The notes under the pieces: generated by a model
What the model saw: only the letters and a program-made list of their open reading frames with translations
Told to the model about the DNA's origin: nothing
Database searches by the model: none
Part shown: positions 4,653 through 9,118 of the stretch, one piece after another
Layout of the letters: each line of letters begins with the position of its first letter
How positions within the stretch are numbered: position 1 is the first letter of the stretch
Source of the DNA: Candidatus Zixiibacteriota bacterium
GTDB lineage: Bacteria; Zixibacteria; MSB-5A5; GN15; FEB-12
Length of the DNA stretch: 51,724 bases
Reading direction: 5' to 3'
NCBI GenBank assembly: GCA_020346225.1
Contig: CP070777.1
Coordinates: forward strand, 141,599 to 193,322
Translations under genes and position numbers: made by a program

Positions 4653-5267
4653 ATGGAGACGGACACCAGAGATTCTGACTTCAATCGCATTTTCAGCGAG
4701 CATCACAAACCTGTCTACAATTATGTTCTGCGAATGGTCAAGGAACAATCCGTAGCGGAAGAACTGACCCAGGATGTTTTCGTTAAGATTTACGGAGCTC
4801 TGGCGGACTTTCGAGGTGACTCGGAGATTTCGACCTGGATTTACCGCATCGCTACCAACGCCTGCCTCGATTACTTTCGGTCCAGGCCCCACAAGAAGTC
4901 CGAGAAGACGGATTTGTTGAGTTCGGAAGATCTCCTTAAGTCCACACTGCCCGAAGACAGGCAGGAAGTGCCGGCCGCTGAAGAGGAACTCATAAGTGCT
5001 GAGATGTCATCTTGTGTGCGGGGTTACATTGATGACCTGCCGGAAGAATACCGGGCGGTCATTCTGCTCCACGACCTTCAGGGGTTCACGAATCAGGAGA
5101 TTGCAGGGATTACCGGCGCCACCCTCGAAAATGTCAAGATTCGGCTCCACCGGGCTCGTCGGAAAATGAAGGAAGTGTTTTCCTGCAAGTGCAGTTTTTA
5201 CCGTGATGAAAGAAATGTCCTCCGATGTGTGGAGAGAGAGGAGGACGAAGGCGGGAATGACGTATGA
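4653..5267 (+). CDS. ECF RNA polymerase sigma factor with Cys-containing C-terminal extension (SigZ-like)
   Basis: Region 2 AEELTQDVF...STWIYRIATNACLD; region 4 LPEEYRAVILL...EIA...VKIRLHRAR; tail CKCSFYRDERNVLRC. Confidence 0.92.
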   Translation: METDTRDSDFNRIFSEHHKPVYNYVLRMVKEQSVAEELTQDVFVKIYGALADFRGDSEISTWIYRIATNACLDYFRSRPHKKSEKTDLLSSEDLLKSTLPEDRQEVPAAEEELISAEMSSCVRGYIDDLPEEYRAVILLHDLQGFTNQEIAGITGATLENVKIRLHRARRKMKEVFSCKCSFYRDERNVLRCVEREEDEGGNDV

Positions 5268-5527
5268 ATTGCAGAGAATTTGAAGACCTTTTGACAGCTT
5301 ATCTGGATGGCGAAATTCCAGCCAACAAGCGCCGCTTCTTTGAGCGACACATGGAATCCTGCGAGCGGTGCCAGGCAGAGATGTCCACGTATGAAAATTG
5401 CGCTAGGCTATTCCAGAGGTTTATAAAAGACGAGGCCCCCCCGGAGGGCTTACGAAAGGCTGTCTTCGATAAATGCGGGTGCCAAGATCTCTCCGAGTGC
5501 TGTCCTCGGCCGAAGCGCGACAATTAG
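5264..5527 (+). CDS. zinc-finger (zf-HC2) anti-sigma factor, soluble, Cys-rich tail
   Basis: MNC...AYLDGE...HMESCERC (HxxxCxxC); ATGA overlap with the sigma gene; tail CGCQDLSECCP. Confidence 0.9.
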   Translation: MNCREFEDLLTAYLDGEIPANKRRFFERHMESCERCQAEMSTYENCARLFQRFIKDEAPPEGLRKAVFDKCGCQDLSECCPRPKRDN

Positions 5528-5630
5528 CCCCCCGCCTCCTGCTTCTGGCGGTCTTTAATTCCTGCCCTCGACCATAATCGTTTATGCGGCAGCAACTTGC
5601 TGCCCCTCTGGCCACTAAACCCCGTAATTT

Positions 5631-5657
5631 TGTATCCTTCTTCAGATTTACTTCGTC
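5631..5657 (+). promoter_or_regulatory. putative ECF-type promoter (TGTATCC-N16-CGTC)
   Basis: TGTATCC 5631-5637 and CGTC 5654-5657 with a 16-nt spacer, about 50 nt upstream of the ATG at 5706; CGTC is a common ECF -10 core. Confidence 0.45.
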
Positions 5658-5705
5658 CAATCAGACGAAACCAGAATTCCAACAGGCTGAACGAGGGAAA
5701 TTGCG

Positions 5706-5933
5706 ATGACTGACTCACAAGAAAAGAAAGCAAAAGACTCACAAGACACGCAGCGAGTCACTATTGAATTCCCGGGCAACTTCTTTCAGGGAATGTTCAG
5801 AATGATGGCCGGTGGCGGCATTTTTGGCGGAGCCGGTTCAAGCTGCTGTGATTTCCCGCAAGACAGATGTTGCCCGCCTTCCGGGGAAGATGCGGGGCAA
5901 GAGTTTACAATTACGATAAAAAGAAAGGAGTAA
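5706..5933 (+). CDS. small Cys-rich hypothetical protein (CC-x6-CC)
   Basis: 75 aa, GAGGG RBS, SSCCDFPQDRCCPP; 4 nt gap to the next gene. Confidence 0.6.
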   Translation: MTDSQEKKAKDSQDTQRVTIEFPGNFFQGMFRMMAGGGIFGGAGSSCCDFPQDRCCPPSGEDAGQEFTITIKRKE

Positions 5934-5937
5934 TGAA

Positions 5938-6165
5938 ATGACTATCAGGAAAAACATCGGCTGGCCGGGGCGTGTAGGGAGAATTGTTGCGGGAGTGATA
6001 CTCCTGTCGCTTGTTCCTCTCGCTTTTGCGGGTCCGAAGACACCCCTGGCCCTCTGGGGTCTCCTTGGGGTAATTCCCTTAATCGCAGGTATTTCGGGGT
6101 ATTGTCTTCCGTTTGATCTTCTGGGGATAAATACCTATCGCAAAGAGAAAACCGTAAATCAATAA
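5938..6165 (+). CDS. DUF2892 (YgaP-like) membrane protein
   Basis: KNIG..GR..RIVAG, two TM helices, GYCLPFDLLGINT; AAGGAG RBS. Confidence 0.85.
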   Translation: MTIRKNIGWPGRVGRIVAGVILLSLVPLAFAGPKTPLALWGLLGVIPLIAGISGYCLPFDLLGINTYRKEKTVNQ

Positions 6166-7337: not shown

Positions 7338-7416
7338 AGTTTAGAGCGAACATCAGTATTATAGTCAATAGAGCAGAAGCGAATATAATCGCCGAAAATG
7401 CGCAAGTGAGGAACGT

Positions 7417-7824
7417 ATGAGTTCTATCAAGATGATCAGCGAGGCCGAGGCGACGGGTAAAACCAGGTCGATCTACGAAGACATCAAGGCGACTCTGGGC
7501 ATCGATTTCGTTCCAAACATGTACCGGGCGATGGCGGTCAAACCGGATTTCCTGGAGGCAAACTGGAACAAGGTCAAGGCGGTCATGCAGGCTCCAGGCA
7601 AACTTGACACTATCACCAAGGAAATAATTGCCGTGGCCGTGTCGGCGGTCATGGGCTGCCGGTACTGACTCACCGTACACACTTCCGCGGTGCGGAAACT
7701 TGGACTGGATGATGAGGGTATTGTCGAGTTGATGGCGGTAGTCGACCTTTTCAGCGGGTTTAACAAACTGATGGATGGGCTGCAGGTGGAAATGGATGAA
7801 AAGCCGTGGTACGGCTGAGGCTGA
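7417..7824 (+). CDS. AhpD/carboxymuconolactone decarboxylase-family selenoprotein: Sec84 in CxxU and probable second Sec134 (ends at 7818 if the second TGA is a stop)
   Basis: The ORF track stops at ...KEIIAVAVSAVMGCRY-TGA (7666-7668). The frame continues LTVHTSAVRKLGLDDEGIVELMAVVDLFSGFNKLMDGLQVEMDEKPWYG-TGA-GGC-TGA, which is the expected second half of the CMD fold. TGA sits at the second Cys of the CxxCxxxH motif and SECIS-like hairpins follow the first two TGAs. Confidence 0.9.
7669..7697 (+). promoter_or_regulatory. putative bacterial SECIS element 1
   Basis: Stem TTCCGC (7683-7688) / GCGGAA (7692-7697) with a GGT apical loop starting 20 nt after the in-frame TGA. Confidence 0.75.
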
Positions 7825-7852
7825 GAATCACGAATGCCGTGAGCATTCCTGA
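7819..7852 (+). promoter_or_regulatory. putative bacterial SECIS element 2
   Basis: TCA-c-GAATGC (7828-7837), loop CGTGA, GCATTC-c-TGA (7843-7852). The loop starts 19 nt after TGA 7816-7818. No U-tract follows, so it is a poor intrinsic terminator. Confidence 0.6.
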
Positions 7853-7935
7853 AAACCCGGCACCCTGATTCGCGGGGAGATATGGAATAGATATGTCGCA
7901 TACCAGTCAGCTAGTGATACAACAGGAGGTAGTCG

Positions 7936-8457
7936 ATGCCATTCATTCTGAAAGCGATCGATGACACGTCGGCGTATGAACAGTTTAAGTCCGTACTTAT
8001 CGTACCGTGCAGATTTTGTCCGGCTGTAAGTGCCGCTGTCAAGAATAACGAACCATACCTTCAGCCCTTTTTCGAACTCTTTAAAACAAAATCGTATGAA
8101 CGATTCATTGCGGACCTGAAAACCCGGCTGCAAAGAAAACGAATCAAGACAGACATATTTAAGAGCTCGTGGATTCACCAATTCGTACTGTGTATGTGGA
8201 CGGAACGAAGACGCAAGGCCCTTAAGAAACTTGCCGGCAAGTACGACGCGCTGATTGTCCTGGGATGCGAAGCGGCAGTACAGACCATTAAGGATGCGGT
8301 CGAACCAAATTCATGCGAGGTTCTTCAGGGAGTTGAGACGGAGGGGATAATGAGTATTCAACCGAGGTTCAATCTTCCCTGTAACCTGTCGCTGGAACTT
8401 GAGAGCGTTTCTCGGTACAAGTATCTGGGGACCCAGGAAGTGGCAAATGCAGGTTAA
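7936..8457 (+). CDS. Cys-motif protein resembling the N-terminal part of MetV / MTHFR C-terminal-domain proteins
   Basis: AGGAGG RBS; VLIVPCRFCPAVS...VLC...YDALIVLGCEAAVQ pattern. Confidence 0.55.
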   Translation: MPFILKAIDDTSAYEQFKSVLIVPCRFCPAVSAAVKNNEPYLQPFFELFKTKSYERFIADLKTRLQRKRIKTDIFKSSWIHQFVLCMWTERRRKALKKLAGKYDALIVLGCEAAVQTIKDAVEPNSCEVLQGVETEGIMSIQPRFNLPCNLSLELESVSRYKYLGTQEVANAG

Positions 8458-8683
8458 GCCTGCCCGACGCCCCCCACTTCCCCAAGCATGCCGCTTTTGC
8501 CGACGATTCTCAGACGATGATCCGTGAAGTTTCAAACCGAGCCGTCGCGGCATGCACAGGCACCTCGGCGCCAACTCGTTATTTTGATTGAATGCCTGAT
8601 TTCGCGAAAAAAGCTTGCTTAAAGACAATGTCAGGACAAGAATATCGGTAAACACACATCCGGTGAGATAGAAAGGACGCGCC

Positions 8684-9118
8684 ATGACTGAAACGAGGAA
8701 TCTGACGGCTCCCTGCGGTTTGGACTGCTTCAATTGTGAAATTTACGAAGACAACTTAACGGACGAGATGGCAGACTTTATTCATGCCAAGATGGGGGTT
8801 CCCAAAGAGCAGATCTCCTGCAAAGGCTGCCGCCGGCAGGACAGCAGTCACTTCCACCTTCCGGCCGATGGTTGCGCGACTCTCAACTGTGCGAAAGAGA
8901 AGGGCGTGGAGTTTTGCTGTGACTGCGGTGACTTCCCTTGCTCGTACCTGGCGCCCCTGGCCGACGGGGCCGGGAGATTCCCGCATAACATGAAACTATT
9001 CAATCTCTGTCGGATCGGGAAGATAGGCGTTGAACGCTGGGCTGCGGAAGAAGCCGGCGAGATCCGCAAGAAGTACTTCACCGGCGAATTTGTTGTTGGA
9101 AAAGGGCAGGCGGATTAA
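8684..9118 (+). CDS. DUF3795 family Cys-rich (putative Fe-S/Zn) protein
   Basis: APCGLDCFNC, CKGCR, C...CAKEKGVEFCCDCGDFPC. Confidence 0.85.
   Translation: MTETRNLTAPCGLDCFNCEIYEDNLTDEMADFIHAKMGVPKEQISCKGCRRQDSSHFHLPADGCATLNCAKEKGVEFCCDCGDFPCSYLAPLADGAGRFPHNMKLFNLCRIGKIGVERWAAEEAGEIRKKYFTGEFVVGKGQAD

Follow-up and report, generated by a model that had tools for sequence, protein, structure and literature searches.

A stretch of 51,724 nt from a Candidatus Zixiibacteriota bacterium (contig CP070777.1, positions 141,599 to 193,322; hereafter the window) carries, between positions 4653 and 9118, a series of small cysteine-rich genes headed by an extracytoplasmic function (ECF) sigma factor. These genes very probably form a conserved, sigma-dependent module. 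We assign a probability of roughly 60% to the full mechanism proposed below, a self-contained ECF sigma regulon in a variable region, while the choice of any one named stress as its inducer would be doubtful. The conservation of the gene set, its association with one sigma subfamily, the sequence and placement of a promoter motif, and both selenocysteine (Sec) codons of an AhpD protein are directly established. The original prediction, made from the DNA sequence alone, had proposed an ECF-controlled module. Control by an ECF sigma is supported by the recurrence of the genes elsewhere, by a conserved ECF-type promoter before the effector genes, and by a sigma resembling group ECF238, but the membership had to be narrowed: the divergent DUF2938 gene drops out, and DUF3795 belongs to the module in Zixibacteria only.

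Ten co-oriented open reading frames (ORFs) occupy 4653-9118, with one divergent frame at 3980-4471 (ORF list). Every gene that had been predicted is an open frame at the position claimed, and the Cys motifs are as described. Family labels were taken from Pfam and NCBIfam profile matches, and genes said to have no family gave none at E ≤ 0.01 in Pfam. The principal genes, all on the plus strand, encode the ECF sigma (204 aa, 4653..5267), a cytoplasmic anti-sigma of the zinc-binding anti-sigma (ZAS) type (87 aa, 5264..5527), an AhpD/carboxymuconolactone decarboxylase (CMD) selenoprotein (7417..7824), and a 173-aa protein of an unnamed family, hyp173 (7936..8457).

Co-occurrence of the genes in other genomes had been named in the original prediction as its test, and it was found both as synteny in two further Zixibacteria genomes and as recurrence in metagenome contigs. 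Among 201 Zixibacteria genomes, the sigma (E ≤ 1e-40) is present in three, including the source genome, and all three also hold hyp173. hyp173 itself is present in five: the source genome, G138, G085, G036, and G170 (G denotes Zixibacteria genomes and L loci; L092 is from G138, L093 from G085, L143 and L144 from G170, and L094 from G036). G138, of the same genus, keeps the order from DUF2938 through hyp173; a 5.5-kb insertion, some of its genes on the opposite strand, follows hyp173 and precedes DUF3795. G085, from another family and with a 52% identical sigma, keeps the sigma, the anti-sigma, both peptides, DUF2892, DUF3795, hyp173, and AhpD. AhpD adjoins hyp173 in the window, G138, G085, G036 (L094), both G170 loci, L104, L130, and L132.

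Metagenome contigs were retrieved with a three-sequence hyp173 alignment, the sigma forming no part of the query. This search gave 42 loci, many of them shorter than 2 kb. A sigma 38-51% identical to that of the window was found by tblastn in half of these (21/42), a Sec-containing AhpD in 4/42, and the esterase in 4/42. A Pfam scan covered 107 of the 153 context ORFs of at least 55 aa; the remainder, set aside on visual inspection, were the hyp173 frames themselves and those running antisense over genes already identified. It revealed CMD proteins in three further loci, DGC-domain proteins in four loci, and one ArsM-like methyltransferase. The conserved core is the sigma, hyp173, and an AhpD/CMD protein. 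hyp173, earlier treated as a side member, is the most constant partner of the sigma subfamily, whose members share three invariant cysteines.

The second line of evidence is a promoter motif. An ECF-type promoter, TGTATCC-N16-CGTC, lies at 5631..5657 (plus strand), 48 nt upstream of the 75-aa peptide gene, and is identified by its conservation and by motif counts. This layout is typical of ECF promoters. The three Zixibacteria loci (window, G138, and G085) share TGTATCC-N16-CGTCCAA in otherwise diverged intergenic DNA, and the motif recurs with identical spacing in G170. The motif was defined on the three Zixibacteria loci, and its 11 fixed letters were then counted elsewhere. Exact sites numbered 23, spread over 19 of the 38 non-duplicate metagenome hyp173 loci (213 kb). 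By comparison, 80 loci with other ECF genes (1.07 Mb), supplied as controls by a profile search with the sigma alignment, contained none, the entire 3.18-Mb genome (a single contig) contained two, and a uniform model predicts 0.14 sites per 288 kb. The widened consensus is GGTGTATCC(C/T)T...TCCGTCT, in short form GGTGTATCC-N16-CCGTCT. In a full-text literature search that paired the motif with "ECF", the matches listed were all to unrelated primers.

The placement of the sites is equally regular. Nearly all metagenome sites (21/23) are co-directional with hyp173, and 27 of 28 sites (42 sources) are followed by same-strand genes of the module families, namely hyp173, CMD/AhpD, DGC, the esterase, a Cys-rich peptide, a CC membrane peptide, or the sigma itself. 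Recurring layouts, with P for the promoter and TM for transmembrane, are P-hyp173-TM protein-[P]-CMD-sigma; sigma followed by P-Cys peptide-TM peptide-AhpD(Sec)-hyp173; P-TM peptide-hyp173-esterase; and P-DGC-CC peptide-CMD-sigma-hyp173. The site at 5631-5657 is the only full one within the window; the motif was found upstream of neither AhpD, hyp173, DUF3795, nor DUF2938 there, and a position weight matrix built from the metagenome sites brought up nothing else convincing in either window or genome. The gaps between the genes downstream of 5631-5657 measure 4-117 nt and hold no terminator-like site. The other exact genomic site (2792248) lies at the junction of two minus-strand genes and points against both; on this orientation it was judged a chance occurrence rather than a promoter. 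A second exact site was also seen in G085 (L093 11054-11080, minus strand), upstream of the gene for a family-less 236-aa protein that precedes the sigma, so the G085 sigma may be autoregulated, unlike that of the window. Between the anti-sigma stop and the ECF-type promoter of the window, a near-perfect palindrome, GGCAGCAA-C-TTGCTGCC, occupies 5586-5606. It is partly retained in G138, not in G085, and could be an operator or a weak terminator.

The module lies in DNA of lower GC content. The value is 0.50-0.51 over 4001-10000, compared with mostly 0.53-0.61 in the rest of the window, and two of three congeners keep the left flank and hold nothing matching the window from 1.6 to 13 kb except a multi-copy segment at ~13.1-13.6 kb. 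Based on the patchy occurrence, these two congeners, and the GC drop, the region is accessory. The same GC drop (to 0.50 over 4-10 kb), the two congeners, and the splitting of the G138 module by its 5.5-kb insertion would also suit a fortuitous grouping, within a variable region, of Cys-rich genes that have nothing to do with one another. Such a grouping is hardly credible, as it is contradicted by synteny across families, by the return of the same families around an independent anchor, and by the enrichment of the motif.

The sigma has the ECF architecture, with Sigma70_r2 at residues 14-78 (1.8e-17), Sigma70_r4_2 at residues 121-172 (2.4e-16), and no region 3. Region 4 ends near residue 175 of 204, which leaves a short C-terminal extension with the tail SCKCSFYRDERNVLRC. 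C121, in the linker between sigma2 and sigma4, and C180 and C192, in the C-terminal extension, are invariant in 32/32 database homologues; the names borne by the closest sigma homologues place the organism in Zixibacteria. These three residues and the tail C-x-FYRDE-x-N-x-L-x-C are also kept in 12/12 aligned sigmas, comprising that of the window and 11 from other genomes or contigs; 11 of the 12 lie in hyp173 loci and the twelfth (L009) does not. The linker holds one Cys (C121) and no CxC. The best NCBIfam matches were a SigM subfamily model followed by two SigZ models, all under their cut-offs. The SigZ models scored 122.7 bits (cut-off 212) and 119.3 bits (cut-off 168.65), and their alignments extend into the C-terminal extension. 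The sigma is not SigR-like (TIGR02947, 87 bits vs a cut-off of 252). Upstream, a candidate sigma-70-like promoter of the sigma/anti-sigma pair, TTGAAT-N16-TATTTT (4620..4647, plus strand), ends 5 nt before the ATG. Its hexamers and spacing are identical in G138 and read TTGAAA/TTAATT in G085; a simple promoter scan did not list it.

These features recall a described group. ECF238 (formerly ECF24 and ECF44) includes CorE2 and Bacillus subtilis SigZ, with CorE itself ungrouped, and is described as having conserved Cys in a C-terminal extension of ~20 aa and sometimes in the linker; metal binding switches the activity of CorE and CorE2 (PMC7826278, PMC8999054). The group entry in the supplement of PMC7826278 describes the group as lacking both an anti-sigma and a conserved promoter motif, with hardly any conservation of context, and it terms the SigZ activation signal a long-standing enigma. 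The CxC linker motif is confined to the former ECF44 (CorE) clade (PMC8999054, PMC7826278 supplement). By its sequence, the window sigma looks like a factor that works as CorE, CorE2, and SigZ do; membership in ECF238 is not claimed. Like CorE and CorE2 of Myxococcus xanthus and SigZ of B. subtilis, it is a minimal sigma2-sigma4 protein with Cys in the C-terminal extension and linker. Unlike them, it comes with a ZAS anti-sigma, a sharp promoter, and a recurring context, features without which ECF238 has been described, and it has a single linker Cys in place of the CxC of the CorE clade. A further likeness is to ECF41, whose conserved target we take to be an adjacent carboxymuconolactone decarboxylase gene, presumably without a classical membrane anti-sigma. 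ECF41 sigmas carry a SnoaL-like C-terminal domain (PMC8999054), whereas the window sigma has a Cys-rich tail instead.

The start of the anti-sigma gene overlaps the sigma stop by 4 nt. Its product matches zf-HC2 (PF13490, residues 3-37, 1.8e-13), carries the full ZAS signature C3...H29-x3-C33-x2-C36, has no membrane helix, and ends in CGCQDLSECC. An anti-sigma overlapping the sigma stop is also present in G138 and G085, where C3, H29, C33, and C36 are retained, and a fragment remains in G170; the G085 protein lacks the CGC..CC tail. That the anti-sigma is the cognate partner of the sigma is suggested by gene order and the 4-nt overlap. The Pfam scan found no zf-HC2 protein among the 107 context ORFs of the metagenome hyp173 loci. 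The predicted ZAS anti-sigma is thus present, with its zf-HC2 domain, but confined to the Zixibacteria lineage, and because zf-HC2 is missing from the metagenome loci, the sigma subfamily would be controlled otherwise in most lineages.

The arrangement resembles SigR-RsrA of actinomycetes, in which a small soluble anti-sigma with C...H-x3-C-x2-C likewise directly follows an ECF sigma with overlapping stop and start. A plain disulfide-stress switch of this type would make the ZAS protein the sole sensor, leave a structural role (e.g., a zinc site) to the sigma Cys, and place AhpD at the head of an antioxidant operon. The small size of the anti-sigma, its lack of a membrane helix, and its full ZAS motif agree with such a switch, as does the peroxidase-related character of the AhpD family (TIGR01926, TIGR00778). 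RsrA is also the best NCBIfam model of the anti-sigma, but TIGR03988 scored 40.2 bits against a cut-off of 62.5, below the level of an RsrA equivalog. The window sigma has its own Cys triad, invariant across the 32 and 12 sequences, and, as given above, is not SigR-like. Moreover, unlike SigR-RsrA, most loci with the same sigma subfamily and promoter are without an anti-sigma, none of their 107 context ORFs being a zf-HC2 protein. A plain SigR-RsrA-type switch is therefore unlikely, and we favor a regulon in which the sigma contributes an input of its own.

The third constant element is the selenoprotein. Its translation matches CMD (PF02627, 6.2e-18) and TIGR00778 (3.5e-15), and TIGR01926 matches as well. 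The first Sec TGA (7666-7668) lies in C-R-Y-U, a C-x-x-U motif, and the second (7816-7818) in a PWYG-U-G tail. Both TGAs are retained in 8/8 AhpD homologues from genomes and metagenomes, and in all eight the second TGA is followed by a Gly codon and a true stop (TGA four times, TAA three times, and TAG once; 7822-7824 in the window). A hairpin resembling a selenocysteine insertion sequence (SECIS), UUCCGC-GGU-GCGGAA, occupies 7683..7697 (plus strand), 17 nt after the first UGA. Its six pairs form in 8/8 sequences, with one C-G pair replaced by U-A on both sides in two of them; the single-sequence fold is unremarkable (z -0.39), and it is the comparative fold that is informative. A second SECIS-like hairpin, GAAUGC-N5-GCAUUC, occupies 7832..7848 (plus strand) in the 3' untranslated region (UTR), 16 nt after the second UGA. 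Four of its pairs are unchanged in 8/8, two outer pairs vary, with one broken in one sequence, and the surrounding noncoding sequence has otherwise diverged. Sec decoding is credible because the genome encodes tRNA-Sec, SelB (above cut-off), and SelD. The in-frame TGA, its conservation, and this machinery bear out the Sec-containing AhpD of the original prediction. The SelD match (G000:C1:724970-725890, outside the window) itself contains one in-frame TGA, so SelD is probably a selenoprotein too. AhpD-like families 1 and 2, with CxxU, are catalogued in a marine selenoproteome survey (PMC2398784). The window AhpD shares with these known selenoproteins the CMD domain and Sec at the second position of the CxxC motif. 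Beyond this it carries another conserved Sec, in a G-U-G tail and served by a separate 3' UTR hairpin, of which we saw no mention in the survey's account of its two families. Unlike them, it also has hyp173 as a fixed neighbor.

hyp173 contains a C-R-F-C motif, and C25, C28, C86, and C111 are invariant in 29 sequences. It had been labeled MetV-like. This label is not upheld: no profile of MetV or of the methylenetetrahydrofolate reductase small subunit matched in Pfam or NCBIfam, the nearest Atlas clusters are unnamed, and no specific structural relative was found. No Pfam family matched at E ≤ 0.01, and the two weak, unrelated NCBIfam matches (E 0.005-0.006) are not MetV. The family is rare: of 1.84 billion cluster representatives, 163 belong to it at E ≤ 1e-3. 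At E ≤ 1e-8, 985 clusters were obtained, and the best 120 of these bear only "hypothetical protein" names and no Pfam domain. In a confident AlphaFold2 model (predicted local distance difference test score of 91), the protein folds as an alpha/beta domain of Rossmann-like type that ends in a beta-hairpin tail. Foldseek matches in the PDB reached E 1.9e-3 at best (TM 0.34-0.43) and included no specific relative, and the best hits of a VIA structure search (Z 8.8), periplasmic binding protein lobes, are at background level. The modeled fold is a generic Rossmann-like one that indicates no family. A complex prediction for sigma and hyp173 scored 0.00, but it was run without controls and counts neither way. 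Two hyp173 homologues with 60-63% identity, P0302 and P0368, carry the NCBI label Candidatus Hodarchaeota archaeon, which reflects either true presence in archaea or an error in binning. In L103 (2750-3784), two tandem hyp173 paralogues follow the sigma, the second 42% identical to the window protein.

The four invariant Cys of hyp173 and its position raise the question of a regulatory role. hyp173 lies 7-200 nt after the sigma, the usual place of an anti-sigma, in L095/L096, L098, L101, L106, and L113, and in the GC-rich loci L114 and L126 the stop of a small CMD gene and the sigma start are 3 nt apart. Either hyp173 or this translationally coupled CMD protein could then be a new anti-sigma or co-sensor where the ZAS protein is missing. 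In many loci, however, the promoter is directly upstream of hyp173 while the sigma lies elsewhere or on the opposite strand, G036 and G170 hold hyp173 and AhpD without such a sigma, and the window has a conventional anti-sigma. A regulatory role for either protein is accordingly very unlikely, and we continue to treat both as targets of the sigma.

Taken as a whole, the mechanism we propose is as follows. The sigma and its ZAS anti-sigma would be expressed from the housekeeping-type promoter in the window, and the anti-sigma would retain the sigma until its zinc-thiolate site is oxidized or alkylated. The sigma Cys triad may provide a second, on-board input by binding thiophilic species. Freed sigma would recognize the motif and fire the single promoter at 5631-5657, giving one operon from 5706 to at least 8457 that encodes the CC-x6-CC peptide, DUF2892, the CC membrane peptide, the esterase, the double-Sec AhpD, and hyp173. 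AhpD and hyp173 could form a catalytic pair in which a four-Cys metal or Fe-S protein partners a selenol/thiol reductase, while the CC peptides would buffer or hand over thiol-reactive species. The stress is probably some thiol-reactive agent, and soft metal(loid)s, reactive sulfur, and oxidants fit alike; the module may serve in detoxification, as had been suggested. A bolder version makes the three-Cys sigma itself the receptor, with a trigonal site like those of As(III), Hg, or Cu(I) sensors. Zixibacteria would have added the ZAS anti-sigma to obtain two thiol inputs, and the constant targets, double-Sec AhpD and hyp173, would form a new selenol/thiol reductase system with CC "hand-over" peptides. 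To this version we give only a small chance.

Several observations weigh against the proposed regulon. A search of RNA runs listed none that contains 4400-9300 of the window. The sole site in the window lies 1.7-2.2 kb upstream of AhpD and hyp173, and a sigma-70-like promoter, TAGTCA-N16-TATAAT (7362-7389), precedes AhpD, so these two genes may be largely constitutive in the window. G036 and one G170 locus hold the AhpD-hyp173 pair without sigma or motif, which indicates that the pair can be independent of this sigma. L009 (Phycisphaerales), the sole near relative among the matches listed in a profile search with the sigma alignment, carries a 42%-identical three-Cys sigma with neither hyp173 nor the motif within 10 kb. 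The sigma scores under the SigZ cut-offs and lacks the CxC of the CorE clade, and thiophile binding by its Cys triad is conjectural. The hints at a stress also diverge: L132 has an ArsM-like methyltransferase, and genes for a rhodanese, DsrE, and NrfD-like proteins are seen elsewhere.

These neighbors could instead point to the metabolism of a sulfur, selenium, or arsenic compound (e.g., a persulfide, a polysulfide, or a methylated metalloid), the sigma tying expression to substrate supply. Besides the ArsM-like methyltransferase in L132, a rhodanese gene occurs in L094, a DsrE gene in L123, and NrfD-like genes in L116 and L121; an O-methyltransferase-like gene lies inside the G085 module; and NCBIfam models of AhpD-domain selenoproteins tied to arsenite methyltransferase or arsenosugar synthesis match weakly. 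No such neighbor, however, occurs in more than two loci, and, apart from an unnamed Fer4-type protein in L116, they have no promoter motif in front of them. What is conserved is a set of small Cys-rich proteins together with a peroxidase-related fold. A metabolic role is quite unlikely on this evidence, and the stress-responsive regulon remains the preferred reading.

An ECF regulon with a Cys-rich, CorE-like sigma and AhpD selenoproteins were both known. What is new is a promoter consensus and a target set for the three-Cys sigma subfamily, the pairing of a CorE-like Cys-rich sigma with a ZAS anti-sigma, the hyp173 family as a fixed partner, and an AhpD with two Sec. The subfamily therefore supplies features that ECF238 was described without: a sharp promoter, recurring targets, and, in one lineage, a ZAS anti-sigma. 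With promoter consensus and target set now available, the sigma-promoter pairing and sensing by the Cys triad become open to a direct reporter test in E. coli. AhpD and the four-Cys hyp173 family are a candidate new redox pair of sulfidic-sediment bacteria, and the module is a conserved, uncharacterized stress unit of sediment bacteria that is apparently switched by its sigma.

The remaining genes of the putative operon are as follows. The 75-aa soluble peptide (5706..5933, plus strand), with no family in Pfam or NCBIfam, has homologues of 45-56% identity in G138 and G085, where CC-x6-CC is retained, and of 45% in G170. The 75-aa DUF2892/YgaP-like TM protein (5938..6165, plus strand; PF11127, 2.2e-12, 47.4 bits against a Pfam gathering score of 25.3) is 69-90% identical in G138, G085, and G170. 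The 61-aa single-helix membrane peptide (6181..6366, plus strand), without a family and with RRRGRWFCC after the helix, is retained in the same three genomes. Analogous TM peptides lie downstream of the promoter in L120, L122, and L123 and upstream of hyp173 in L129 and L100, and CC was read in those of L129 and L100. The Abhydrolase_3 esterase of the hormone-sensitive-lipase type, GESAG subfamily (6375..7337, plus strand; probable start ATG 6402), matches Pfam at 6.2e-57 (193.2 bits against a gathering score of 25) and NCBIfam GESAG_HSLs at 1.9e-89, under the cut-off of the latter model. Copies with 48-85% identity lie beside hyp173 in G138, G170, L100, L103, L122, and L135, and in G085 the O-methyltransferase-like gene occupies the esterase slot.

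Vicinal Cys pairs recur in these small proteins beyond chance, as the original prediction had noted. The background of the same genome (2678 long ORFs) is 1.07% Cys and 2.2e-4 CC dipeptides per residue. The anti-sigma, the 75-aa and 61-aa peptides, and DUF3795 together contain 5 CC in 367 aa, compared with ~0.08 expected, an enrichment of ~60-fold. Radical-SAM genes near three loci led us to consider the CC peptides as precursors of ribosomally synthesized and post-translationally modified peptides. This idea was rejected, since the strand and position of those genes vary and they are without a promoter site.

Two flanking genes had been counted as members. The Cys-rich DUF3795 protein (8684..9118, plus strand; PF12675, 2.2e-18, 66.9 bits against a gathering score of 22.6) adjoins the module in G138 and G085 and was not found by tblastn in the metagenome hyp173 loci. 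In G138, the 5.5 kb that separates it from hyp173 includes opposite-strand genes, so it is not co-transcribable there, and it probably has its own promoter. Its membership accordingly holds within Zixibacteria, as a lineage-specific companion, and fails beyond them. The DUF2938 membrane protein (3980..4471, minus strand; PF11158, 3.1e-33, 114.9 bits against a gathering score of 31.4) is a neighbor whose membership is unsupported: it is absent at the G085 locus, a 360-aa gene stands between it and the sigma in G138, and it has no promoter site.

Some side observations concern the other Zixibacteria loci. The second G170 locus (L144 7418-10023) is a decayed module. It has no sigma, its anti-sigma is reduced to 37 aa and its hyp173 to 55 aa, while the promoter, DUF2892, the esterase, AhpD, and the two peptides are still intact; G170 keeps an intact AhpD-hyp173 pair elsewhere (L143). 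The G138 insertion (L092 1244-5895) encodes a TetR-like, a 511-aa radical-SAM-like, a small ABM-like, and an RRM-type RNA-binding protein and a 425-aa membrane protein, labels that were read from the translations without a family scan. The segment at 13110-13617 of the window has several matches per congeneric genome, one of them inside the G138 insertion at the RRM-type RNA-binding gene, and appears to be a multi-copy gene family.

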